A stretch of DNA of 32,000 bases from Acaryochloris marina S15 (GTDB taxonomy: Bacteria > Cyanobacteriota > Cyanobacteriia > Thermosynechococcales > Thermosynechococcaceae): positions 5,190,001-5,222,000 of the forward strand of contig NZ_CP064923.1 of the NCBI RefSeq assembly GCF_018336915.1. The letters are read 5' to 3'. The notes below the pieces were generated by a model. The model was not told where the DNA came from, ran no database searches, and was given only the letters and a program-made list of their open reading frames with translations. This document shows positions 13,850-32,000 of this stretch, piece by piece (position 1 is the first letter of the stretch; every line of letters starts with the position of its first letter). The position numbers and the translations under genes were made by a program.

Positions 13850-15001
13850 ATGGTCTCTGATGTTTTGCAATGCGCTATGGCTGCTAAGACAAAAAAACAG
13901 TCCTCGAAAACAGTCGAGCCTCAAACTGCCGTTCTGCGACAACATGCCGAGCAACAGTTTGCAGCAGAACTCGAAGAACTTCGCAAATCTGATACGCGCC
14001 AACGTCCAGCAAACTGGCAGCTTTCTCCATGGGCCGTTTCCACCTATTTATTGGGGGGCACCTTAGAGAATGGCTTTGAAGTCTCAGCAAAATATATTGG
14101 CAATCGGCGACTGATGGAAATCGCTATTGCCACACTGACAACGGATCGAGCCCTTTTGCTGTATGGGGTTCCCGGTACGGCCAAGTCTTGGGTATCGGAA
14201 CATTTAGCGGCTGCGATCGCAGGAGATTCTACCTTATTAATCCAAGGGACTGCAGGCACCAGCGAAGATGCCATTCGCTATGGCTGGAACTATGCAAAGC
14301 TCTTAGCAGAAGGGCCATCCCTAGATGCGATCGTGCCTAGCCCGTTAATGCAATCCATGGATCAGGGCAAAATCACCCGCATTGAAGAACTGACACGCAT
14401 TCCTGCTGACGTTCAAGACACCTTGATTACCGTTCTCTCTGAGAAGACCCTGCCCATTGCCGAACTTGGAGAAGAGATTCAAGCCACCCAGGGGTTCAAT
14501 GTGATTGCCACCGCTAACAACCGAGACAAAGGGGTGAATGATCTCTCTAGCGCTCTGAAACGCCGTTTTAACACTGTTATTCTCCCCTTACCCGATGACG
14601 CCGATTCTGAAGTCAGAATTGTCCAAGAGCGAGTTAAAAGCTTAAAAACAGCCCTAGAACTACCCGCTGAAGCCCCTGCCTTAGCTGAAATTCGACGCGT
14701 TGTCACCATTTTCCGGGAATTACGCAGCGGCATGACGGAAGATGGCAAAACCAAGCTCAAATCTCCCAGCAGCACCCTAAGCACCGCAGAAGCCATTTCT
14801 GTCGTCAATAGCGGCTTATCTTTGGCCGCCCATTTCGGTGATGGTTCCCTCCAGGCCCATGATTTAGTCTCTAGCTTGGTTGGAGCCGTGGTTAAAGATC
14901 CAGTTCAAGATCAAGTGGTGTGGAAAGAATATCTTGAAACCGTGGTTAAAGAGCGAGACAACTGGAGTGACTTATATCGAGCCAGCCGCGAGGTTCTCTA
15001 G
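13850..15001 (+). CDS. MoxR-like AAA+ ATPase
   Basis: Walker A is of the MoxR type (LLLYGVPGTAKS). A degenerate Walker B/sensor region follows (..ITRIEELTRIPADVQDTLITVLSEK..), then ..FNVIATANNRD..LSSALKRRF... An alternative ATG start is at 13877. Confidence 0.7.
   Translation: MVSDVLQCAMAAKTKKQSSKTVEPQTAVLRQHAEQQFAAELEELRKSDTRQRPANWQLSPWAVSTYLLGGTLENGFEVSAKYIGNRRLMEIAIATLTTDRALLLYGVPGTAKSWVSEHLAAAIAGDSTLLIQGTAGTSEDAIRYGWNYAKLLAEGPSLDAIVPSPLMQSMDQGKITRIEELTRIPADVQDTLITVLSEKTLPIAELGEEIQATQGFNVIATANNRDKGVNDLSSALKRRFNTVILPLPDDADSEVRIVQERVKSLKTALELPAEAPALAEIRRVVTIFRELRSGMTEDGKTKLKSPSSTLSTAEAISVVNSGLSLAAHFGDGSLQAHDLVSSLVGAVVKDPVQDQVVWKEYLETVVKERDNWSDLYRASREVL
14213..14220. repeat. HIP1 palindrome GCGATCGC
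   Basis: perfect octamer read in sequence. Confidence 0.95.
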
Positions 15002-17666: not shown

Positions 17667-20600
17667 CTAGCGCCGAGTACAGGGATTTGTTACATCAGGG
17701 TGTCGCTGTTGGTAAGTCTGTAACCATTGGCATCCTTGCTGTAAGAGTTGAGGGAGGGTTCCAGTTTGCCAGATCCGAATGGCGTCATCTTTGCCCACTG
17801 TCATCAAAGACTTGCCATCCGCTGCAAATTGCAGACTATACACGGCCCCTTGATGTCCCATCAATTCTGCTAATTGTTGCCCTTTAGAGGTCCAAATTTT
17901 GACAATCCCATCTTGCCCAGCCGTTGCCAGACGCTGTCCATCGGCACTGAGCACCAAGCGAAGAATATCGTTGGGATGACTCTGAAATTGCTGCTGCAGC
18001 TGGCCTTTACCCGACCAAAATTTAACAGAACCATCTTTCCCCACCGTCACAATCTGCTTGCCATCAGGGCTAAAGCGGACATCACTAAGCCACCCTTGCT
18101 GGGCATCAAATTGCCTCAGCTTTTTACCAGAAGGTGTCCAGACCTTGACTTGCCCTTCTCTACCAGCCGTCACCAGTCGCTTGCCATCAGGGCTAAATCG
18201 GATCGCCCATAGGGGCTGGGTAGAGGCTTCAAATTGTTGATGGTCTTGGGACTGAAAATCCCATAGATGGACGGTCCCATCATTGGCCGCCGCCGCTAGC
18301 ATCTCACCCTTGGGAGCATAGCTGAGGGAATACACTCCTTTTTTATCAACGAGATGGTCCTCTAATTTACGGCCCTGTAAATCCCACATGCGGACATAGC
18401 CATCTTCACCCGCTGTCGCTAACCGCTTTTGATCAGGACTGAACACAACATCGTTGCCTTTATTGTGGGCTTGTTTTTCCCACAACAAGGTTCCATTTTT
18501 CTGCCACAGCCGCAACATGCCATCCTTGCCCGTTGTCGCCACGGTGTCTTGTTGGGGGTGCAGCGCGATACTCCAAATACTCTTATGCTGGCCTGCCCAT
18601 TGTTGCTGGCCAGCTAGGTTCCATAAGTGGAGGCTGCCATTTCTGCCTGTGGTCAGCAGACTTTGACCATCTGGGCTAAAGCTAGCGCTACTCACCAATC
18701 CAGAATGTCCTTTTAGCTCTGCCAATTTTCTCCCAGCAAAGTCCCAAACTCGAATCGTACTATCTTCCCCTAGGGTCACCAATTTTTGTCCTGTGGGGCT
18801 GGCATCAATCAGATATAGAGACGTTTGACTGCCTCGCCAGACATTCAAAGGTTGGGTACTAGACGCACTCCACAGACGAATCAGGCCATCGGTGCCGACC
18901 ATAGCAAACCGTTGATTTTGCTGGCTTGAAGAAGAGGTCCCAGGCGCTGTATCGGGGAGAAAGCTCACACTGTTTAACTTGAGGTTGGGATTGATTCGGC
19001 TTTTCCATTCCCTCAGTTTCTGTCCCGATAGCGTCCAAGCCTGCATCGTACCGTCTGTCCCAACGGTCACCACGGTCTGTCCATCGGGATTAAAACTCAA
19101 ACTACTCACAGAGCCATTATTGGCCGTGAACTGAGCCAACTGCTGACCAGCTTGACTCCAGATATAAACCCGACCATCGGTAGCAGCGGTAGCAAATTGG
19201 TCACGATTAGGGCTAAACCGAATACTTCTAAGTCTGCCAATCTTCTGTTGGGCTGTTGACTTGAGGTCACCTTCAGCATCCCAAAACTGGAGCTGTCCCA
19301 CCGGAGTGATGGTCAAAACCTGGTCATTTTTGAGGAATGCTGCAAACCGGATGCCTTTAGGATTGGCTTGAAACGCTTGTAGCTGCTCACCCGTTGGGGA
19401 CCAAATTCGGACATAGCCATCTTTTCCTGCGGTAATCAGTTGATCGCCGCCAGGACTAAAGGAACCACTATAAATGCGTCCCTTATGCCCCTGCCAGGTA
19501 TTCGTTTCATACATATTGTCCAGAATGCTCTGGAGGACAAACAGGGGTTTGACGGTGGGATAGTCTTGCAGCTGGCGTTTAGTAGGGACTAAGTCTTGCA
19601 GTTTTTGGCCTAGCTCAATCGCGGACTGCAGGGCCTGTAGCTGATTCGTGGGGAATTGCCGGAGAGTAATCACCCCTTCCTGTTCCAAGGACAGACTTTG
19701 CTGAGATTCTTGCAGATCTCGCCCCGTACGAATGCCAACTGCAATCGCCAAAACGGAGATACCGGAGACCAATGCCAAGGCTGCGATCGCAACTCTGACA
19801 ATTCGACGGGCCTTGCCATGGGCCTCCGTCAAAATATGGTTGGCCTCTTCCATAGCTTTCTTGGACTGGCGCTCGGTGGCGAGGCTGACTTCGACTTCTT
19901 GCTTGTCAGCGTTCTGACTCGCGCTTAAAAACTGATAGTCCTGGTCACTTAAGCTTTTGGTATTGGACCAGGCCAAAGCCTCCCGTAAGGCTTGACCTCG
20001 AAGAAGCCGGGACATATCTTGTCCGTCAGACTGCAACCAAGACTGCATCACATCGGCATAGGGCCGCAATTGCGCCAATTGCTGCTCGACCCAAGTCAGA
20101 TCAAAGATTTTTGCATAAATGCGATTGTGAATATAAAGCTGCCCTTGTTGCTGAATCACCAAGCCCGACAACAGGAGCTCCATTTGTTCAGAACTATTGT
20201 CTGTGGGGGTACCCACTTGCCAATCGGGTTGGTCTAGCAGCTTCTGATAACTGCCGAGCAGCCGTCCCGCTCGCTTTTCATTTTGCAGCAGGCGATTGCG
20301 AATGGTGCGGAGGTGCTCTGGTTCATCTTGGGCCTCCCAACTATGGAGAATTTGCAATTGAACCAAATCGGTCACAACCTGCGCTTCATCGCCTGGGGGA
20401 ATAGCAGAACCCGTGGTCAGGAGCTTACACAGCTTTTGGGTCAAAAAAGGTTGCCCATTCGTCCAATCTAAAACGGCCTGTACTAGCTGTTCTGGGTGTT
20501 GGGACACATCACTCAGTCCTACCGTCAGCGGCCGAGCTGCTGCGGATTGAAACCCACGGAGGTGAATCGCTCGGCCAATATTAAAAGGCGTACGCTGCTG

Positions 20601-21218
20601 GTCTTGAATTAGTTGAGAGGGGGTAGCGACGCCGAACAGAGCAAAGGTGAGGCGCTTAAAGTCATCGCGATCGACCCGACTGTTGTAATGGGCGCGCAGC
20701 AGGGCAAAGAAATCATCGGCAGAAAAGCTGAGGCTGAGCAGGCTATCAACTTCATCAATAAAGATCACCATGTTCTGGGGGACATGGACAAACAGCACCT
20801 GTTCAATAAAGTCCGTCAGGCGTTGGGCGGGGGATAACAGGGTGCGATCTCGCCACCAAGACCGCAAATGAAACTTGTCCCCCAGCTTAAATTCGCTGAC
20901 CAATGCCCCAATCAGACTGGCATACCACTGCTCTGCGGTAATATTCTGGCTGCCAATTTTAGTGACATCAATGGAGGCGCAGGCAAACCCTTCCACGGTC
21001 AAGCGCTTCATGGTATGCACACGCAAACTGGATTTGCCCATCTGACGAGCTGTGAGTACGTAGCAAAATTCCCCTGCTTTTAGGGCTTGATACAAATCAC
21101 GATCGGCTTGGCGGACGACATAGGTCCGGGCATCAACGGGTAAACTTCCCCCCACTTGATAGGGATTGATCGGCGACGTATCAGTCGTCCAGTCTGAGAC
21201 AGAGGTATCCATAGGCAA
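17667..21218 (-). CDS. AAA-like (AAA_35/STAND-type) NTPase - coiled coil - single TM - 14x WD40 repeat protein
   Basis: 1183 aa. Walker A is ARQMGKSS (21027-21050) and Walker B is VIFIDEVD (20745-20768). A hydrophobic helix [24 protein letters not shown] spans 19731-19802. I counted 14 WD-type blades by their ..(R/K)(I/V/L/F)W.. ends (aa ~577-1152, nt 17763-19490). Confidence 0.85.
19783..19790. repeat. HIP1 palindrome GCGATCGC
   Basis: perfect octamer read in sequence. Confidence 0.95.
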
Positions 21219-21277
21219 ACCATAACCAGCGATGGGCAGTCCCTAGGGGAAGCACCCATAGTCACAAAATATCACCC

Positions 21278-23866
21278 TCATTCCCTGGCCCCTTGCTCTG
21301 CCGCCACCGTTGCAAAATATTGACGATAGAGATCGCAACGGGGTTGCGCCCCATTCCCAACCAGTTGAATGAGACCTAAACTGTGCAGCTTAAACAACAC
21401 AGAGGGTTCTAGAGAGATAGCCTGTTCAGCCGTAACAGCGGCAATAAAGGATTTTGCCAATTGTTGATGCTGTTGCAAATTCCACCAATGGCCCCTTAGA
21501 TGATCGCGGAATAGTCCTGCTTCCGTCGGAGCTGTTTCCAGCAGTTGGTCTAAACTCATATCTCCCTTGGCAACGTGATACAGGGCCAGTCGGATCAGAT
21601 AGGGATGGCCACCTATGAGGGTTTGAAGCTGGGTAATCTGAGCTTCATCCCAATCCAAGTGATGTAGCTCTGCCAGTTGGCTAATTTGCGCTAAAGAGAA
21701 TTCTGGTAAATCAATGGGTAAGCCGACATTAAAGGGGGACTGATTGGTGTTGAGGGGAATATAGACCTCAGTTGCATGAACGACGATAAGCCGCAATTTC
21801 TGCCAGATTTCTTGGTTTTTGGCTTCTTCATGCCAAGCCCGCAGCAAACCAAAAAAGTCGCTGGCAATCTCAGGATATTCAAACACTCGATCCACTTCAT
21901 CGAGGGCCAAGGTCAAGGGGCCATCTAAATCAGGCAGAATATACTCTTCGAAATAAGCGGTGCAATTGTATTTACTGCCAAAAATGTCGTCCCAAGTTTC
22001 AGAAATTCGATTGGGCAAACGCAATCTGCGACTGACACTCGCACAGAGCCACTGCAAGAGCTTGTCCAGATCCGTAAATACCTTGCCATCCGCCAATTGC
22101 AAATTTAACGACACCGTATTCAACCCTTGGCTGGAGGCTTCATGGAGAATTCTAGCCATAAGTGAAGTTTTACCCATTTGCCGAGGAGCTTTGATGCGAA
22201 TTAACGACCCAGGTTGCACTACAGTTTCCGCACAGCGGATTTCAATGGGGGGACGCTCAATATAAAACGCCGATGCTACATTCACCTGTCCTTCTGGCAA
22301 TTCTGGCTCAGCGACGGGTAATGGGGGCGCATCGGATTTTTGCTTGGGTGGCGGCACCGTGGGGAATGAACCCGAACTCACTTGTTCAGCGGTTCGAGTC
22401 ACTGAAGCACTGGCATCCAAGGTTGCCAAAATGTCTTGGACCAGGTTGGGCGTATCGCTGGCCGATCGCCAAATGCGCTGCTGCAGCCGATGCAAATATC
22501 CTCGTAATTCGTAATTCAAGGAACCATCCATCGGCAAATCAACCCGAATGGGCACAATTTGAGGTCGCTGTTCCGAACGACTCTGATGCAATGCTTTGAC
22601 CGCTCGCACTTCCTGCAGCATCAACTCGCTATGGGCCGAGGCCCGAGACAAGAGCAAGACATAAAAGTCACAAGCCTTGAGAGCGTGATCAATATGCTGC
22701 GCCCAATTCTCTTTTAGCTCCAGGCTCTGGGTAGACATAAACGGCTGATAGCCTGCCCCTTTAACCGCTTCAAATAAGTCCTTAGCAACCTGCAGCTCGG
22801 GTTCCCGATTCAACGCACTAATAAAAACCTGGCTAGTCACTTCCGCCAACGGTTGAGTCGCACTTTCCGGATCAGCGGCAAGGGAATCTGATCCTAAGGA
22901 GCCCTTGGGGAAATCAGCCGGACGAGCCACTTGCGGGGTGGTTTGATAGCTACGTTCTACAGTGGGGTCAGCATCGCCAGCCCAAAAGTTTTGTACGGGC
23001 GATCGCAAGATTTTGCCAACTTTTTGGAACCATCCTGACGAGGGTTGGGCTTGGAGTTCTTTTAAGACCTCTTCTGCAGATTGATACCGATATTGAAAGT
23101 GGTAGCGGACCATTTGCTGTAGCACATCCGCAAGGGCTGGGCTAACAGACACTTCTTCCTGCCAGTCAATCTCGCCCTGGGCTGTTTGGGTAAATTGGGT
23201 CGGGTTTTTACCAATAAAGGCCTCAATCCCAATCATGCCTAAAGCATAAAGATCGCTATTCGCTCGGGGACGGCCCTGGGCCTGTTCAGGAGCCATATAG
23301 CCAGGGGTGCCAATGGCAATCGTTCCCCCAACCGGTAAGGGTTGATGGGGATCACTACTCAGTTCTTTACGCAGCTGCTTGACGGCACCAAAGTCGATCA
23401 GGACCAGCCGACCATCCTGCTGCCGACGAATAATATTTTCTGGCTTGATATCGCGGTGAATGACATTGAATTGGTTAATGAAGGCCAGAATCGACAAAAT
23501 ATCCTGCAGGAGTTGAGTGACCTGTTCTTCTGACCATTGACAGCCCTGGGGTAATTCTTTGCGCAGTAAGTGACCGGGGATATATTCCTGAACGAGATAA
23601 AACTCTTGTTTTTCCTCAAAATAGGCTAATAAACGAGTAATCTGATCATGACTTCCTAATTTCTCCAGCATGACGGCTTCCCGCTCAAATAGAGACCGTG
23701 CTTTCGGTAAAAACTCAGGATCTCGTTTCGCCGGCTTGAGATGCTTGACCACACATTGGGGGCGATCGGGACGATGAATATCCACAGCCAGATAAGTCTG
23801 ACCAAAACTACCGCCGCCTAAGGTTTCCTGAACTTGATATCGTCCACCGAGGGTTCGACCGAGCAT
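21278..23866 (-). CDS. Ser/Thr protein kinase - TIR-like domain - AAA-like (AAA_35/STAND-type) NTPase fusion protein
   Basis: 862 aa. The kinase has GGGSFGQ, VVKHLK, HRDIKPEN (23435-23458), DFG and GTPGYMAPE. The TIR-like block is aa ~346-466 (22469-22831): QVFISALNRE..ACDFYVLLLSRASAHSELMLQEV..IVPIRVD. The NTPase has Walker A APRQMGKTS (22163-22189) and Walker B LTLALDEVD. Confidence 0.85.
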   Translation of the reverse strand: MLGRTLGGRYQVQETLGGGSFGQTYLAVDIHRPDRPQCVVKHLKPAKRDPEFLPKARSLFEREAVMLEKLGSHDQITRLLAYFEEKQEFYLVQEYIPGHLLRKELPQGCQWSEEQVTQLLQDILSILAFINQFNVIHRDIKPENIIRRQQDGRLVLIDFGAVKQLRKELSSDPHQPLPVGGTIAIGTPGYMAPEQAQGRPRANSDLYALGMIGIEAFIGKNPTQFTQTAQGEIDWQEEVSVSPALADVLQQMVRYHFQYRYQSAEEVLKELQAQPSSGWFQKVGKILRSPVQNFWAGDADPTVERSYQTTPQVARPADFPKGSLGSDSLAADPESATQPLAEVTSQVFISALNREPELQVAKDLFEAVKGAGYQPFMSTQSLELKENWAQHIDHALKACDFYVLLLSRASAHSELMLQEVRAVKALHQSRSEQRPQIVPIRVDLPMDGSLNYELRGYLHRLQQRIWRSASDTPNLVQDILATLDASASVTRTAEQVSSGSFPTVPPPKQKSDAPPLPVAEPELPEGQVNVASAFYIERPPIEIRCAETVVQPGSLIRIKAPRQMGKTSLMARILHEASSQGLNTVSLNLQLADGKVFTDLDKLLQWLCASVSRRLRLPNRISETWDDIFGSKYNCTAYFEEYILPDLDGPLTLALDEVDRVFEYPEIASDFFGLLRAWHEEAKNQEIWQKLRLIVVHATEVYIPLNTNQSPFNVGLPIDLPEFSLAQISQLAELHHLDWDEAQITQLQTLIGGHPYLIRLALYHVAKGDMSLDQLLETAPTEAGLFRDHLRGHWWNLQQHQQLAKSFIAAVTAEQAISLEPSVLFKLHSLGLIQLVGNGAQPRCDLYRQYFATVAAEQGARE
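22999..23006. repeat. HIP1 palindrome GCGATCGC
   Basis: perfect octamer read in sequence. Confidence 0.95.
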
Positions 23867-24330: not shown

Positions 24331-25029
24331 TTACCTTACCCGTCGAGTTCCTGGCTTGAGGCGATACCGTTTCTTTTGCAAGGACTTATTGTTCTGAAGT
24401 CTAGTCTTGCGAACTAAGCCTTTTGGCTGTTTGGAGGGAGATTTAATGGCTTTAGTGGGAACCAATACCTTGGGACCCGCAGGGATTGCTTCTGGAACTG
24501 CGGGTAATCCTTCCTCAACAGGTTCGGCTAAACCAGGGTCTGGATGTTCACCAAAGTCATCATCGGGTGGGAATGCATTGTCATTCCCAGAAGCCCCGAT
24601 CCCAATGAGGGGGCCTTCAGTACCGATATTGATATTGACATTGATGGCAGGACCGCTAGAGTCTTGCGTCTCTTCTACCAAGGCTGTGTCATCTGCGTTA
24701 GCAAATTCATCTTCTGCAAGGGAATCAACTGCCACAGGGGAACAAAGTTCAGTAGGTTCTAGGCCTTCTTGAGCATCCTCACCAGTTGCTTCAACTTTGG
24801 TTTCCTTACTTTCGCTCATCGTGGGCAGACAATCTTCTGTGAGCAATTCTTCAGTTAACTCAGATGGTTCAGTTCCCAAAGAGATAGGAATGTCTTCTGT
24901 TGGGGTGGGATTAGCCTCGGAGGCGAGACTAGCGAGGGGATTCATCCCAACCACCAGGCAAGCCATTAGAAATACTTGCAGTTTGTTAGGTGCAGGATGA
25001 GCAGAGCCAGCCGTTTGTTTCAGCATCAT
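24331..25029 (-). CDS. secreted, highly acidic low-complexity protein with basic C-terminal tail (hypothetical)
   Basis: 232 aa. It has a signal-peptide-like N-terminus (..KLQVFLMACLVVGMNPLASLASEA) and a long D/E/P/T-rich region. The last ~45 aa are K/R-rich (..KQPKGLVRKTRLQNNKSLQKKRYRLKPGTRRVR). Confidence 0.6.
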   Translation of the reverse strand: MMLKQTAGSAHPAPNKLQVFLMACLVVGMNPLASLASEANPTPTEDIPISLGTEPSELTEELLTEDCLPTMSESKETKVEATGEDAQEGLEPTELCSPVAVDSLAEDEFANADDTALVEETQDSSGPAINVNINIGTEGPLIGIGASGNDNAFPPDDDFGEHPDPGLAEPVEEGLPAVPEAIPAGPKVLVPTKAIKSPSKQPKGLVRKTRLQNNKSLQKKRYRLKPGTRRVR

Positions 25030-25120: not shown

Positions 25121-26356
25121 TTGGGATACATGCAACCTCGGACTGCACTGCTGGCAATCTTTTCCACCTTTCTGCAACTTGAGACCGATCATGTCCAAAC
25201 TTGGGCCAGTGATTCAAAGCTGCGTCGCAGTATGCAGATCCACCTTGAGCAATCTCAGAAAGCCGATCTGTCGGCGAAGTTTTGGTCCCTGTACTGGCAT
25301 AAGCTGTGGCGAGCGGAATTTCAGCCCGACTCGCAGCAGGTTTCGGCAGGCCATTTATCGGCTTATTTACAGGAAACTTGTTATTGGACCGCCCAGAAAA
25401 CGGCGACTCGGTTTAGCAGCAGCCGCTATGGGGTGAGTGACTATTTTCAAATCGCCATGGCGCAGGTGGACAAGATCCTCAAGGGCTTCAATTCCGATCA
25501 AGGCTTTAATCTGCAAAATTATGCCAGCGCCACCTTCGCCAGCTTAATGCGGGAAACGCTACGGCAACGCCGCGAAATTGATATTTGCAGTGATTGGGCT
25601 TTGCTACGAAAGCTAAGTCAGAAGCGGCTGGTCGAAGCCTTGAAAAATAATGGTTTGCCTCAAGAAACGATTGATAGTTATGTTTTAGCCTGGACTAGCT
25701 TTAAGGCAATTTATGTTCCTGAACAGGCGACGGGGACTCAGAAATTGGAGAAACCAGGGGCTGCGGTTTGGGTTGCGATCGCAACTCAATACAACCAAGA
25801 ACGCACCACACAATTACCCCCGAATACTGCTGCCATCACGGTTGAGGATCTCGAAGCCATCCTAATGACCTGTACCAAAGCAGCCAGAGCCTACCTCTAC
25901 CCATCCCAAATTTCCATCAATACACCCAGACCGGGACAAGACGCGGGAGAATTCCTGGATCAATTGCCCAATACAGAACAGACATCCTTACTAGAAGAGA
26001 TGATCGCCACAGAAACGATACAAACAAGACAAAACCAGCACCAGCAAATCGGCAAGGTCTTAACAGCAGCCATTCAGGACTTGGATCAGCCGTCTCAATC
26101 ACTTTTGCAGCTCTATTACTCCCAAGCCTATACCCAACAGCAAATTGCCGAGAAATTAGAGATGAAGCAATACACCATTTCCCGGCGATTAACCAAGCTC
26201 CGCAAGACACTGTTGACAGCTTTAGCCACCTGGAGCCAAGATACTCTGCATATTTCACCCGACTCGGACGTACTCAAAGCTATGAGTTCTTCCCTGGAAG
26301 AATGGCTGACGGGACACTACGGTGAACCTGCCCCCACTGCCCCTGCATTAGAGTGA
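25121..26356 (+). CDS. sigma-70 family RNA polymerase sigma factor, atypically long (411 aa)
   Basis: It has a region-2-like block (..DYFQIAMAQVDKILKGFNSDQGFNLQNYASATFASLMRETLRQ..) and a region-4 HTH (..LLQLYYSQAYTQQQIAEKLEMKQYTISRRLTKLRKTLL..). The two are separated by a long non-conserved linker of well over 100 aa. Confidence 0.8.
   Translation: MGYMQPRTALLAIFSTFLQLETDHVQTWASDSKLRRSMQIHLEQSQKADLSAKFWSLYWHKLWRAEFQPDSQQVSAGHLSAYLQETCYWTAQKTATRFSSSRYGVSDYFQIAMAQVDKILKGFNSDQGFNLQNYASATFASLMRETLRQRREIDICSDWALLRKLSQKRLVEALKNNGLPQETIDSYVLAWTSFKAIYVPEQATGTQKLEKPGAAVWVAIATQYNQERTTQLPPNTAAITVEDLEAILMTCTKAARAYLYPSQISINTPRPGQDAGEFLDQLPNTEQTSLLEEMIATETIQTRQNQHQQIGKVLTAAIQDLDQPSQSLLQLYYSQAYTQQQIAEKLEMKQYTISRRLTKLRKTLLTALATWSQDTLHISPDSDVLKAMSSSLEEWLTGHYGEPAPTAPALE
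25775..25782. repeat. HIP1 palindrome GCGATCGC
   Basis: perfect octamer read in sequence. Confidence 0.95.
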
Positions 26357-27510
26357 TGATCATGACGTCTGATTTAGCCTTATTTGACTCTACTTATTTA
26401 GAAATTGATGCCGCGATTCAATCGCGATGTTGGCAACAGAGCCTAGGGGCAGCGCCCAATCGCTGGCAGACCTACTTGCATTTGATCTGTTTGGAAACGG
26501 TGCTGCCTTGGTTGCGGGAAGATCATAATTTACGGTCAATCTCGGCCCTGAAGTTACCTTCCTTGCAGAGTATTTGGGCAGTAGTAGCGGGAACCCCTAT
26601 TCAAGTCGGCTCGCAGAAACTGGTGTTGATTCCCACGGAAAGTATCGATTTAGATGAACTGCGGGTTCCCCAAGAATGGGTGGATATTCCCGACTGGATA
26701 GCAGATTACTATGTGGCAGTGCAGGTCAATCTGGATGAGGGCTGGGTGAGATTAGGGGGATTTACCAAACACTTACAGCTCAAAGGACAGGGGCAATACG
26801 ATTGGCGCGATCGCACCTACTCTCTCAACGATACTGATCTCACCCCAGATCTGAATGTGCTCTGGTTAACTCAGCAATTCAATCCCCAAGAGGTCACTCA
26901 AGCAGCAGTTAATCCGTTGCCAGCACTCTCCAAGGTACAAGCTGATCAACTTATTCAACGGCTCGGCAATGCAGATATCGTTACTCCTCGCCTATCCATT
27001 CCTTTTGAACAATGGGGCAGCTTAATAGATCACGGTGGTTGGCGACAGCACTTAGCGGCACAACGATGCGGCATCACTGAACAGCTTTCAGTGGGGCAAT
27101 GGCTGCAAACGGGGATGACAAATCTGGCGCAACAGATGGGCTGGCAATCTATTACGTTACAACCCCAACTCTCTGCTGCCCGAGGCGATCAACCCTCAAC
27201 ACCAATTGCAGCGATTGCGCGACAGTTACAGATTGAGGGTCAGCCCTATGAGTTGAATATCTATGCAGTGGAAACTGATTCAGCGTGGCGGTTTGAACTT
27301 CGACCTGTAACTCCTGGTGCCATGATTCCAGCCGGTTTTGTGCTGCGATTACTAACGGAAGACCTTGAATCTTTTGAGGGGAATGAGGATCAAGCCTCTG
27401 AGTCCGTAGATCGGCTCTATATTGATGTCGCTTTGGAGTCTGGGGAAGGTCTAGTTTGGATAACAGAACCACAATCAGACCTGTATGACCAAGAAATTCT
27501 AAGGTTTTAG
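26353..27510 (+). CDS. DUF1822-like protein (cyanobacterial, function unknown)
   Basis: 385-aa soluble ORF. Its start codons (GTG 26353, ATG 26356, ATG 26362) overlap or abut the sigma-factor stop (TGA 26354-26356). The DUF1822 assignment is from my memory of that family and its habitual sigma-factor neighbour; it needs an HMM check. Confidence 0.6.
   Translation: MMIMTSDLALFDSTYLEIDAAIQSRCWQQSLGAAPNRWQTYLHLICLETVLPWLREDHNLRSISALKLPSLQSIWAVVAGTPIQVGSQKLVLIPTESIDLDELRVPQEWVDIPDWIADYYVAVQVNLDEGWVRLGGFTKHLQLKGQGQYDWRDRTYSLNDTDLTPDLNVLWLTQQFNPQEVTQAAVNPLPALSKVQADQLIQRLGNADIVTPRLSIPFEQWGSLIDHGGWRQHLAAQRCGITEQLSVGQWLQTGMTNLAQQMGWQSITLQPQLSAARGDQPSTPIAAIARQLQIEGQPYELNIYAVETDSAWRFELRPVTPGAMIPAGFVLRLLTEDLESFEGNEDQASESVDRLYIDVALESGEGLVWITEPQSDLYDQEILRF
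26807..26814. repeat. HIP1 palindrome GCGATCGC
   Basis: perfect octamer read in sequence. Confidence 0.95.
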
Positions 27511-29941: not shown

Positions 29942-32000
29942 TTAACTAGCCTGCTGTAAACCTGCCTGCCAAGGCAATGGTAACTGCTTCAAACTCAACC
30001 CTTCCTCAAAAATCTGCTGAATCGGATACATCTGTCCATCCATCGTCATAAACTGATGTTCCGCCGTCGCTTGAATCGTCGAGCCATCTTCCAGGGCATA
30101 TTCAAACACCTCCTGCTGGCCGCGATGGTGCCATTGAGCAATCGGTTGCGTATACAGATGTCCTCGCTCATCAATCGAAAAGACTTGACATTCAATTTGC
30201 TCCTGTACCACCTGGCCAATGGGCAGCCAACCATACTCCAACGTCAACACAGGCGTGTCATAGCTCAGACAATATTCAGCAAACAACACCATTTGCTCGA
30301 ACAAATCTTCAGAGATTTTTTTGTCAACACCCTTCTTGAAAGCCCCTTCAATGAAGATCTCCCGATGTTTCTCCATCTCCGCCACTTTCTTTTTACCCAT
30401 CGCCCGTCGCAACAGGTCAGCTTCTCCCAGAGAGTAGCCCGCCATATCCTGAGCAATCTTCATGATCTGCTCCTGATAGACCATAATGCCATAGGTCTCT
30501 TCTAGGATCGGCTTGATCAATTCATGGGGATAATCAATCTTTTCCCGCCCATGTTTACGGTTAATAAATTTGGGAATCAGCCCCGCATCCAAAGGACCCG
30601 GTCGATAGAGAGCCAGAATCGAAGAAATATCCTCTAAGTTAGACGGCTTGAGATCTTTGACGACCTGGCGCATCCCCGAAGACTCTAACTGAAAAATTCC
30701 TTCCAATTCTCCCCGTGCTAACAGTTGAAATGCTTCTGGGTCATTCATGGGTACCCGATCGATGTCTAGATCGAGCTGCCGATTCTTCTTGAGCAAGTCG
30801 GTTGTTTTCTGGATCATCGTCAGGTTTTTGAGGCCCAAGAAGTCCATTTTTAGCAGGCCCAAAGATTCCAAATCTTCCATGAAATACTGGGTAATCACCG
30901 CGCCCTCGTTATTACGCTGCAGGGGCACCAGTTGATCCAAGGGTTCTGAGGCAATTACAACGCCCGCTGCATGGACCCCAAAGGTTTTGTTGGTGCCCTC
31001 AATCCGAATCGCCATATCCAGCCAGCGGCGCACAATCTGATCCTTGTCGTATCTTTCCTTAAACTCCGGGGCTGGCGTTTCGTCTGAAATCATTACCTTC
31101 AGCTTTGCCGGTTTTCCTCGGGCCACCGGAATCAGCTTCGCCATCCGATCGGCATCCCCATAAGGAATATCCAGCACTCGGGCCACGTCTTTGAGTACTG
31201 CTTTGGAAGTCATGCGGTTAAAGGTGATAATTTGCGCCACCCGATCTTCGCCATACTTGCGGGTAACGTAGTCAATCATTTCTTCCCGTTTTTCGATGCA
31301 GAAATCCGTATCAACGTCAGGCATCGACTTCCGTTCTGGATTCAGAAATCGCTCAAATAGCAGGCCATGATGAACGGGATCGATATTCGTAATCCCTAAG
31401 GCATAGGCCACCAGAGAACCTGCAGCACTGCCTCGCCCTGGTCCCACAGGAATATTATGGTCGCGGGCATATTTGATGTAATCCCACACCACCAAGAAAT
31501 AAGTAGAAAAGCCCATCTGCTGGAGCATCTCTAGCTCGTATTCCAAACGTTCCTTATAGACATCCGTCACCTCTGGGCGGGCTTTGCATTCGCACCGCTC
31601 CAATAGGCCATCCCAGGTCACCTCTTCCAGGTAAGTTTCAGCAGTATAGCCTTCCGGTACTTCGTAGTCAGGACTTTGGGGGTCGCGGAAGATATCGTAG
31701 GTTTCGACCTTTTCAGCTACTTCTAGGGTGGTTGCGATCGCAGTGGCAATCACGTCATCCTCTAAGTGGTCCCGAAACATCAAAGCCATCTCGTCAGCAG
31801 TTTTCAGATACTCAGTACCGCTATAGCGAAGACGCTTGTCTTCTGTAATGAGCTTGCCCGTCTGGATACAAAGGAGGGCATCATGGGACTCCACGTCATA
31901 GCAAGAGATAAAGTGGGAGTCATTAGTGGCAATTACCTTAATATCCAGTTCCTGGGCAATGCGCACCAGCTCCACATTCACCACCCGATCTTCCTGGGAA
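29942..32000 (-). CDS. dnaE: DNA polymerase III alpha subunit, N-terminal split half (DnaE-N) ending in split-intein N fragment; 5' end outside window
   Basis: Pol III alpha motifs are present (..[23 protein letters not shown].., ..MPDVDTDFC.., ..[11 protein letters not shown]..). The extein ends ..LFAEY and is followed by CLSYDTPVL.. The ORF stays open to the window edge; the M at 31984 in the track is internal. Confidence 0.95.
29945..30271 (-). mobile_element. DnaE split intein, N-terminal fragment (IntN, 109 aa)
   Basis: [59 protein letters not shown].. parallels the Synechocystis/Nostoc DnaE IntN ([33 protein letters not shown]..). The Cys1 codon is at 30269-30271. The protein stops inside the intein, as in trans-splicing dnaE. 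Confidence 0.9.
31734..31741. repeat. HIP1 palindrome GCGATCGC
   Basis: perfect octamer read in sequence. Confidence 0.95.

Follow-up and report, generated by a model that had tools for sequence, protein, structure and literature searches.

A conserved cyanobacterial gene pair divides an NLR-like architecture between two paralogous AAA_35 NTPases

STAND (signal transduction ATPases with numerous domains) and NLR (nucleotide-binding, leucine-rich repeat) proteins have a tripartite architecture of effector, NTPase and sensor on one polypeptide. A pair of adjacent genes in the cyanobacterium Acaryochloris marina S15 raises the question of whether such an architecture can be divided between two chains, because neither gene A (effector and NTPase) nor gene B (NTPase and repeats) has it on its own. 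The pair lies in the stretch of DNA that we analysed, a window of 32,000 nucleotides (nt) of contig NZ_CP064923.1, in whose numbering all coordinates below are given. Its parts are, with protein lengths in amino acids (aa):

21278..23866, minus strand: gene A, encoding an 862-aa kinase-TIR-AAA_35 protein (open reading frame (ORF) from ATG); the effector half, without a sensor domain
21219..21277, minus strand: the A-B spacer of 59 bp, read from the sequence
17667..21218, minus strand: gene B, encoding an 1183-aa protein of AAA_35, stalk, transmembrane (TM) and WD40 parts (ORF from TTG); the receptor half, without an effector domain

An initial annotation of this DNA had read the pair as a split NLR-like conflict system, and the residues, motifs, coordinates, 59-bp spacer and shared strand that it gave were all correct on rechecking; the strand is the minus strand. 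Gene B has an alternative ATG start two codons in (21212), which gives an 1181-aa product and a spacer of 65 bp; this is the product annotated in four independent assemblies, in all of which gene A is identical.

The linkage of the two genes was surveyed in two directions. The forward set, with one genome per GTDB species, contained at least 585 relatives of the TIR-AAA_35 part, and the reverse set, from metagenomes, at least 559 B-type stretches; 80 loci were fetched from each. Genes were called A-type at more than 250 bits to the gene A NTPase and B-type at more than 200 bits to the first 400 aa of gene B, cross-matches between the types reaching about 50-75 bits. A B-type gene was located downstream on the same strand for 54 of the 73 evaluable A-type genes (74%), and an A-type gene was located upstream on the same strand at 47 of the 65 evaluable B-type metagenome loci (72%), so that the synteny implied by the split interpretation is present in other genomes. 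The direction of the linkage provides an internal control against chance clustering, since a single same-strand B-type gene was found upstream of A against 54 downstream. Thirty-two of the B genes in the forward set start within 400 bp of A, twelve of them with frames that overlap by 1 bp or abut, and the gaps of orthologous pairs range from -1 to about 300 bp. The B homologues downstream of A-type genes are 46-92% identical to gene B. On a TARA Oceans contig with entirely different neighbours, a kinase-TIR-AAA_35 gene of 65% identity overlaps an AAA_35-WD40 gene by 4 bp. The A-B pair is a conserved operon-like module. The size of the B-type family (>6500 clusters at E<=1e-10) could have favoured a chance adjacency of two members of a large expanded family with no functional link, but linkage at these rates in both directions, the 54-to-1 bias and the overlapping or abutting frames effectively refute this explanation, to which we assign almost no probability.

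Where A and B are 0.4-4 kb apart, we considered a conserved third gene and rejected it. The inserts vary (macro-domain, 5-formyltetrahydrofolate (5-FTHF) cyclo-ligase-like, Uma2-like and secreted proteins), and the recurring macro-domain and 5-FTHF-cyclo-ligase-like inserts of the Microcoleus loci lie on the opposite strand, which argues for insertions rather than a third component. As a separate observation, a 5-FTHF-cyclo-ligase-like gene recurs by the modules at loci L052, L062, L065, L067 (between A and B) and L087 (2389-2985), and at L052 and L062 it is accompanied by a macro-domain gene, both on the opposite strand between A and B. A link of these genes to ADP-ribose or NAD-derived chemistry is possible.

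The two proteins are complementary in what they lack. In A-type proteins (n=72) at most 15 aa follow the NTPase/winged-helix unit, in B-type proteins (n=64) 41-95 aa precede Walker A, and in all sampled relatives the effector-NTPase-sensor plan is absent from either protein alone and present in A and B together. The placement of the effector on one NTPase and of the sensor array on its paralogue, proposed from this single locus, therefore generalises. Around the constant NTPases, the outer domains are exchanged. The head that precedes the TIR domain in A-type proteins can be a Ser/Thr kinase, a class III cyclic nucleotide monophosphate (cNMP) cyclase, a trypsin-like protease (with a Trypco1 gene before it), a caspase, an unclassified and possibly helix-turn-helix (HTH)-like region without a Pfam match, or nothing, and the TIR domain always follows whatever head is present. 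The C-termini of B-type proteins are exchanged too, with WD40 and TPR as the commonest and PG_binding_1, CHASE2, CHAT, trypsin, GUN4, Amidase_3, macro, REC, HisKA/HATPase, PBP-like and other domains besides. Three of the four sampled B-types with other C-termini follow a TIR-AAA_35 gene, the CHASE2-type B standing alone. At 9 of 53 loci, two or three tandem B genes follow a single A.

How are the two NTPases related? The initial annotation had called them paralogous from three blocks shared in the same order (DFFxLLRA, PFN(V/I)G and G(H/Q)P(Y/F)L), which we find in both modules. BLASTP aligned the modules at 23% identity (E=1e-11), and hhalign aligned their profiles with a probability of 99.1% (E=9e-19) over 316 columns that span the core, the helical domain and the winged helix. 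From these alignments we consider the A and B NTPases to be ancient paralogues over the whole unit of ~330 aa rather than products of a recent duplication. Both look active, as neither the Walker A nor the Walker B motif varies among the 81 A-types and 64 B-types. Both also belong to the AAA_35 class (PF14516), as the initial annotation had stated, with 503.9 bits for gene A and 97-100 bits for gene B against a gathering score of 27.

The wider class is less clear-cut. STAND NTPases, in the definition attributed to Leipe and colleagues (2004), are said to combine a GK[ST] Walker A, an hhhhD[DE] Walker B, a helical domain with a GxP motif, and a winged helix. Both modules fit these traits, with P-loop motifs, a GxP-type motif (GGHPYL in A, GGQPFL in B) and a winged helix; we take the GGHPYL/GGQPFL motif to be the STAND-like GxP trait, its diagnostic value being our assumption. 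Membership of nSTAND1, NACHT or NB-ARC was considered and rejected, because the N-terminal 578 aa of gene B match no Pfam family other than AAA_35, and the gene A NTPase matches AAA_35 and, weakly and below threshold, the P-loop family AAA_22. No relative of solved structure was found by sequence, the best matches being at E=0.14 (ORC2) and E=0.23 (MobB). The AlphaFold2 (AF2) models of the NTPases of gene A (predicted local distance difference test (pLDDT) score 76.5) and gene B (pLDDT 80.5, predicted TM-score (pTM) 0.70) each show a bundle of helices and, after it, a unit made of a helix and a beta-hairpin. In Foldseek searches, the gene A model matched 2qen (an archaeal Walker-type ATPase), Aeropyrum ORC2, Apaf-1, NRC3, Avs4 and Roq1, and the gene B model matched ORC2, 2fna (SSO1545, target TM-score 0.61), Cdc6/ORC, RuvB, CED-4, Avs3/4 and Roq1. 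The top ranks are archaeal PF01637 ATPases and ORC/Cdc6, with Apaf-1, CED-4, NRC3, Avs and Roq1 at similar E-values; the TM-scores reach only 0.3-0.6. On these models, both modules appear to sit at the border of ORC/Cdc6 and STAND proteins. The label 'STAND-type' that the pair had been given therefore stands in part: the motifs listed above are present, no nSTAND, NACHT or NB-ARC model matches, the predicted structures fall between PF01637/ORC/Cdc6 and Apaf-1/CED-4/Avs/NLRs, and 'STAND-like' is a fair but approximate description of something other than a classic NACHT or NB-ARC. A passage of Kaur et al. 2021 (PMC8195603) mentions an 'MNS clade (Npun2340/2341 family)' of STAND NTPases. This name suggests two adjacent Nostoc punctiforme genes, and we suspect that they belong to the same family as A and B.

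The most conserved motif specific to this family is a loop:

21719-21754, minus strand: PFN(V/I)G loop of gene A (aa 705-716), corresponding to aa 205-216 of gene B in the 1181-aa form

AF2 confidence for this loop is low, with pLDDT around 50 or less in both models. Most B-types have basic residues on its flanks (R207 in 46 of 64, R or K at 214 in 48 of 64, about 72-75%), and A-types never do. The arginine fingers of AAA+ proteins sit at the corresponding position. We rejected an arginine-finger assignment since the loop is poorly modelled and the basic residues of B are only ~72-75% conserved; the asymmetry is intriguing but is not used as evidence.

From the complementary architectures, the fixed order of A then B, the overlapping or abutting frames and the several B genes per A, together with the shared family-specific loop and the structural kinship with oligomerising proteins, several of them hetero-oligomeric, we infer that the two chains co-assemble through their NTPase modules and thereby cluster TIR domains. 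Such a split NLR-like switch is the most likely reading of the pair, and we hold it with middling confidence. In outline, a ligand or envelope event would engage the array of gene B, and the signal would pass through the stalk to the gene B NTPase and change its nucleotide state. Gene B would then nucleate co-assembly with gene A through the homologous NTPase modules, the clustered TIR domains would turn active (cleaving NAD+ or producing a signal) and the kinase would fire. The outcome might be cell arrest or death, as abortive infection or programmed cell death.

The same evidence bears on a rival in which A and B are co-regulated but physically independent, each homo-oligomerising separately, with a link such as a second messenger, phosphorylation or proteolysis and no mixed NTPase ring; the shared operon would then reflect work in one pathway. 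The modules are only about 20-23% identical, the complete Walker motifs could make each self-sufficient, and kinase-type A genes in several genomes, like the CHASE2-type B gene, stand alone, all of which this rival would accommodate. It does not easily explain why frames overlap or abut in the order A then B, why several B genes follow one A, or why the PFN(V/I)G loop is kept in both modules while the basic residues on its flanks differ between A and B. The strict complementarity would also leave A without input and B without output if they did not communicate directly. We consider physical independence unlikely.

The domains of gene A, the candidate executor, are placed as follows:

23060..23839, minus strand: Hanks-type Ser/Thr kinase, aa 10-269 (Pfam Pkinase, E=1.3e-38; catalytic residues intact)
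22373..22831, minus strand: TIR domain, aa 346-498 (Pfam models TIR_2 and TIR, both above gathering scores)
22610-22612, minus strand: E419, putative catalytic Glu of the TIR domain, by motif only
21311..22300, minus strand: A-type AAA_35 NTPase, aa 523-852, with P-loop core, helical domain (GGHPYL) and winged helix (AAA_35, E=2e-151)
22163-22189, minus strand: Walker A, APRQMGKTS (K566)
21890-21910, minus strand: Walker B, LALDEVD

The kinase scored 133.3 bits with Pkinase (cut-off 31.7). Among 30 orthologues, H137, R138, D139, K141, N144 and D158-F159-G160 are invariant and K41 nearly so; a GTPGYMAPE motif is also present, in which P193-E194 is conserved. By profile and by its catalytic Lys, HRD Asp, Asn, DFG and APE, this is an active-looking Hanks-type kinase. 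The block between kinase and NTPase, which the initial annotation had called TIR-like, was recognised in profile hidden Markov model (HMM) searches by TIR_2 (PF13676; aa 347-445, E=2e-12, 48.1 bits against a cut-off of 28) and by TIR (PF01582; aa 346-498, 31.3 bits against 21.3), and is a TIR domain. S350, G372, D400, S413 and R441 are invariant in 81 A-type homologues. Position 419 is Glu in 57 of these, and we take E419 to be the candidate catalytic Glu from the TIR_2 consensus motif 'S.w c..E l'. The AAA_35 match of gene A covers the full model; APRQMGKTS and LDEVD are invariant in 81 of 81 A-types and GGHPYL is found in 80 of 81. Orthologues of the whole protein (~860 aa, 50-93% identity) occur across cyanobacteria, including Acaryochloris, Thermosynechococcus, Synechococcus PCC 6312, Cyanothece PCC 7425, Lyngbya and others.

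Gene B, the candidate receptor, was divided into these parts:

20091..21155, minus strand: AAA_35 NTPase of the B type, aa about 22-376, comprising also a helical domain (GGQPFL) and a winged helix (AAA_35, E=1.8e-28)
21027-21050, minus strand: Walker A, ARQMGKSS (K62; K60 in 1181-aa numbering)
20745-20762, minus strand: Walker B, FIDEVD
19737..19946, minus strand: stalk, a long helix (aa about 425-485) that leads into the single TM segment (aa 476-494), by AF2 and hydropathy
17769..19496, minus strand: 14 WD40 blades, aa about 575-1150 (blade-end motif count and Pfam WD40)

Its AAA_35 match is partial (aa about 22-270, model positions 4-246, E about 1e-27 to 1e-28). All 64 B-types keep [SA]RQMGKSS and F.DE.D; within GQPFL, all 64 share the G, P, F and L, 59 have the Q, and 55 have a Gly just before the motif. 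The stalk is one continuous helix of ~60 residues in the AF2 model (423-483 in 1181-aa numbering) that runs into the hydrophobic segment, the only TM-grade segment of the protein (Kyte-Doolittle 19-mer score 2.66). WD40 matched with E=2.8e-94 (306 bits, 12 stretches). The coiled-coil or stalk, the single TM helix and the 14 blades had all been read correctly, and the 14 blade-end motifs fit two predicted 7-bladed propellers.

The position of the TM segment bears on what the propellers could sense. Of 58 B homologues, 40 have a TM-grade segment at this position. Its sequence is not conserved, and the Lys and Arg residues that flank B TM segments average 3.85 N-terminally and 2.05 C-terminally, which fits an N-in, C-out orientation. 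In some B relatives PG_binding_1 directly follows the TM helix, and one B protein of a Nostoc plasmid has the NTPase, a TM segment, ~14 WD40 blades and then Amidase_3, with no second TM helix. The conserved TM segment and these peptidoglycan-acting domains after it suggest that the WD40 array of gene B is probably extracytoplasmic, facing the periplasm or the thylakoid lumen. A TM segment is missing from some B paralogues with WD40 repeats. The earlier view of the array as an NLR sensor arm holds as far as its presence is concerned; its predicted location would be unlike that of an NLR sensor, which is cytosolic. Separately, at one Floridaenema and one Phormidium locus (L032, L033) a single A gene precedes two B genes of the WD40 type, of which only the second has a TM segment, an arrangement which suggests that soluble and membrane-bound sensors may serve the same executor.

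Tentatively, the split switch could be taken further, into a transmembrane two-chain NLR-like receptor, which we regard as possible but less likely than not. Its extracytoplasmic propellers would sense an event in the periplasm or envelope (candidates are a phage that adsorbs or injects, damage to the wall, or signalling by a neighbouring cell), and the B NTPase would nucleate a hetero-oligomeric, resistosome-like assembly at the membrane with its soluble paralogue A, which brings the TIR domain and kinase. One executor NTPase might be served by several interchangeable sensor NTPases, and cyanobacteria would then have in this family a large, modular receptor system of the 'outside-in' kind, for innate immunity or cell death. 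The opposite polarity also has to be weighed. Gene A might be the cytoplasmic sensing or threshold part, with the C-terminal domain of B acting outward on the envelope as effector or scaffold, a picture suggested by B relatives that end in Amidase_3, trypsin, CHAT or PG-binding domains after the TM helix and by the MoxR-vWA ternary systems, whose hypervariable C-terminal domains are read as effectors (PMC7159879). Here, however, gene B ends in WD40 without an enzymatic domain, the commonest B C-termini are WD40 and TPR, classic ligand-binding arrays, and gene A has no recognisable ligand-binding domain. This inside-out arrangement is thus very improbable in our estimate.

Is the pair a defence system? 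Thirty-nine cyanobacterial plasmids, some mobilisable or conjugative, carry A-type genes, and intact A-B pairs are present on plasmids of Nostoc ATCC 53789 and Tolypothrix PCC 7601. Two chromosomal loci abut type I restriction-modification (R-M) systems; an SLFN/AlbA_2 gene accompanies the first and a DUF1016/YhcG gene the second. The module is patchily distributed and multi-copy. Phage-encoded copies were considered and rejected: the IMG/VR search gave no A-type relative, and the sole pair there, a divergent one of 38% identity with TIR+AAA_35 first and AAA_35+TPR second, is on a contig whose viral nature is doubtful (L169, 7491-11071). That contig, classed as viral, also carries a pectate-lyase-like 851-aa ORF and an unannotated 1543-aa ORF beside the pair. 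Against the two closest relatives, dN/dS was 0.025-0.155 in all segments of both genes with measurable dN and no higher than 0.085 in gene B, so every such segment is under strong purifying selection; the dN of the WD40 propellers was roughly 2-3 times that of the NTPase modules. In PADLOC, the sole match of gene B was its WD40 region, and among the best 25 of the 43 matches of gene A all lay on the kinase, aa 1-333 (PD-T4-6, mad6, MkoA and others). The NCBIfam Thoeris model ThcB4 scored 23.6 bits, below its cut-off of 220.

Several of our observations weigh against the split, defence-related switch. Among the matches listed, no model of PADLOC-DB v2 (Avs, bNACHT, Thoeris and others) fell on the TIR domain or either NTPase part, and the neighbours of the pair in the window are housekeeping genes (sasA, psaE, mutM) with no obvious defence island. 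The WD40 array shows no domain-level positive selection at dN/dS<=0.085, with dS near saturation. Gln replaces the putative TIR catalytic Glu in 22 of 81 A-types, and several B C-termini are themselves enzymes (CHAT, trypsin, Amidase_3), so that B is not purely a sensor across the family. The distance matrices of A and its adjacent B correlate at r=0.88, a value reached by 0 of 2000 permutations, but this mirror-tree correlation is confounded by shared phylogeny, which alone could yield it. Finally, no B-type gene was found within 6.7-10 kb of 5 of 10 kinase-type A genes (three from Thermosynechococcus, one Synechococcus-like and one from a member of the Leptolyngbyaceae). On the Thermosynechococcus sp. 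TA-1 chromosome (L172), for example, the kinase-TIR-AAA_35 orthologue is followed by a small HATPase_c_2 (anti-sigma-kinase-like) gene, with no B-type gene within 8 kb. Kinase-type A may work alone or with a distant partner.

Some of these points would be accounted for if the pair served transmembrane signalling of envelope or environment rather than immunity, reporting on cell-wall status, cell-cell communication or developmental death in filaments, with the TIR domain as a scaffold or a generator of a NAD-derived signal and the kinase, cyclase and other outputs as signalling domains of the ordinary kind. The A outputs include a kinase, a cNMP cyclase and possibly an HTH-like N-terminus; CHASE2, PG_binding_1, PBP-like, REC and HisKA/HATPase are found among the B C-termini; some TIR domains lack the putative catalytic Glu; the sensor shows no positive selection; and the pair stands in a housekeeping context beside sasA. 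Set against this are the constant presence of TIR, the plasmid-borne, patchy and multi-copy distribution with R-M systems sometimes adjacent, and the alternative heads, caspase or trypsin with Trypco1, which together with TIR are treated as hallmarks of conflict systems by Kaur et al. 2020 (PMC7159879). A purely non-immune role has a low probability in our judgement, and a split NLR-like switch in conflict or cell death remains the reading we prefer.

As for the surroundings, the pair is flanked on one side by sasA, psaE and mutM and on the other by a sigma-like/DUF1822 pair. In the latter, a sigma70_r4-like gene (25121-26356, plus strand) overlaps a DUF1822 gene (26353-27510, plus strand) by 4 bp, and each of the four related assemblies keeps the two. 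A Pro/Glu-rich low-complexity ORF with an N-terminal hydrophobic segment occupies 24331-25029 on the minus strand, just upstream of gene A; assemblies that agree in gene A differ in the genes called there, with 149+176 aa, 305 aa or 232 aa. At 29942-30250 (minus strand), the dnaE-N ORF ends in a split-intein N fragment, the well-known cyanobacterial split DnaE. A promoter and terminator consensus scan gave no site in the A-B spacer, and its counts equalled the shuffle background, so the scan is uninformative.

Taken together, the earlier split NLR-like interpretation is partly supported. The computable outcomes named in advance as refuting it (a middle block other than TIR, unrelated NTPase modules, no synteny elsewhere) did not occur, and it needs refining in fold class, in topology and in view of the nSTAND2 precedent. 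We read the pair as a paired NLR-like system on AAA_35 NTPases with a predicted transmembrane sensor half; the paired-STAND idea is known, and this family is uncharacterised. If the proposed mechanism is true, the module would be a bacterial counterpart of sensor/helper NLR pairs with its sensor across a membrane, whereas bacterial STAND immunity described so far detects invaders in the cytoplasm, and it would bear on how multicellular cyanobacteria couple envelope surveillance to cell death. The family is large (at least 585 A-type and at least 559 B-type stretches), modular, partly plasmid-borne and absent from PADLOC-DB v2. It is also tractable, with two genes, clear motifs to mutate (K566, K62, E419, D139) and natural variants with swapped heads and tails.

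Among known systems, the best structural matches are ORC/Cdc6 and the archaeal PF01637 ATPases (PDB 1w5s/1w5t, 2qby, 2fna, 2qen), which share the AAA+ core, helical lid and winged helix. ORC/Cdc6 paralogues work as hetero-oligomers or mixed assemblies. Unlike A and B, these proteins have no effector or sensor domains, and no sequence relationship to them was found beyond E of about 0.1. The single-chain STANDs (Avs, bNACHT and the cyanobacterial Apaf-1-like WD40 STANDs; Lee et al. 2026 preprint, 10.64898/2026.01.04.697583) share the Foldseek neighbourhood (Avs3, Avs4, Apaf-1, CED-4) and the layout of N-terminal effectors, including TIR or proteases, with C-terminal TPR or WD40 sensors. They are, however, cytosolic and of one polypeptide, no PADLOC model for them falls on the A or B NTPases among the matches listed, and the best structural matches of A and B are the archaeal PF01637 ATPases and ORC/Cdc6 rather than NACHT/NB-ARC.

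The passages of Kaur et al. 2020 (eLife, PMC7159879) on MoxR-vWA ternary systems, VMAP and iSTAND describe the same set of heads (trypsin with a neighbouring Trypco1, caspase, cNMP cyclase, TIR), hypervariable C-termini, some peptidoglycan-associated after a TM segment, and an enrichment in multicellular cyanobacteria. Their core consists of MoxR, vWA and either VMAP or an inactive STAND, whereas that of A and B is two active-looking AAA_35 NTPases with no vWA partner. The window does contain a MoxR-like AAA_5 ATPase gene (13850-15001, plus strand), and related contigs carry a VWA gene roughly 10 kb from gene A, beyond relA. We rejected a ternary system of the MoxR-like gene with A and B because of the opposite strand, the distance and the intervening sasA, psaE and mutM.

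Closer in plan is nSTAND2, which the passages on it in Kaur, Iyer, Burroughs and Aravind (2021, eLife, PMC8195603) present as a predicted counter-invader two-gene operon with STAND modules in both products, a proposed toroidal hetero-multimer, and effector and repeat domains on one partner. As described there, it is proteobacterial, and one nSTAND2 partner has eroded NTP-binding motifs and carries GT4 or HEPN; A and B, in contrast, both keep invariant Walker motifs, have TIR and kinase as effector and have a membrane-anchored second partner. The identification of A/B with nSTAND2 was rejected, as hhalign of WP_094198012.1 (aa 1-321) against the A-type profile gave a probability of 0.9% and the Walker motifs are intact in both partners. 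The statement that no characterised system with such a split was known needs narrowing: in the library searched we found no description of the A-B pair and no paper mentioning PF14516, but a predicted two-STAND operon of a different family exists.

In eukaryotes, NAIP-NLRC4 and the plant sensor/helper pairs (RRS1/RPS4, the NRC network) consist of a paralogous sensor and executor whose NOD modules mediate co-assembly. One executor can take input from several sensors, the two members of a pair are often encoded by adjacent genes, and TIR domains are activated by induced proximity. These are the nearest functional analogues of A and B, but the likeness is an analogy only, since the AAA_35 modules are not NACHT/NB-ARC members; moreover, the partners of paired eukaryotic NLRs usually each keep a repeat domain, whereas the division between A and B is complete and its sensor half is transmembrane. 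For that half, mycobacterial PknD offers a parallel, in which one TM helix joins a signalling domain in the cytoplasm to a beta-propeller sensor outside the cell. In PknD the kinase is on the sensor chain, whereas here the TM chain carries an NTPase and the kinase is on its soluble paralogue.

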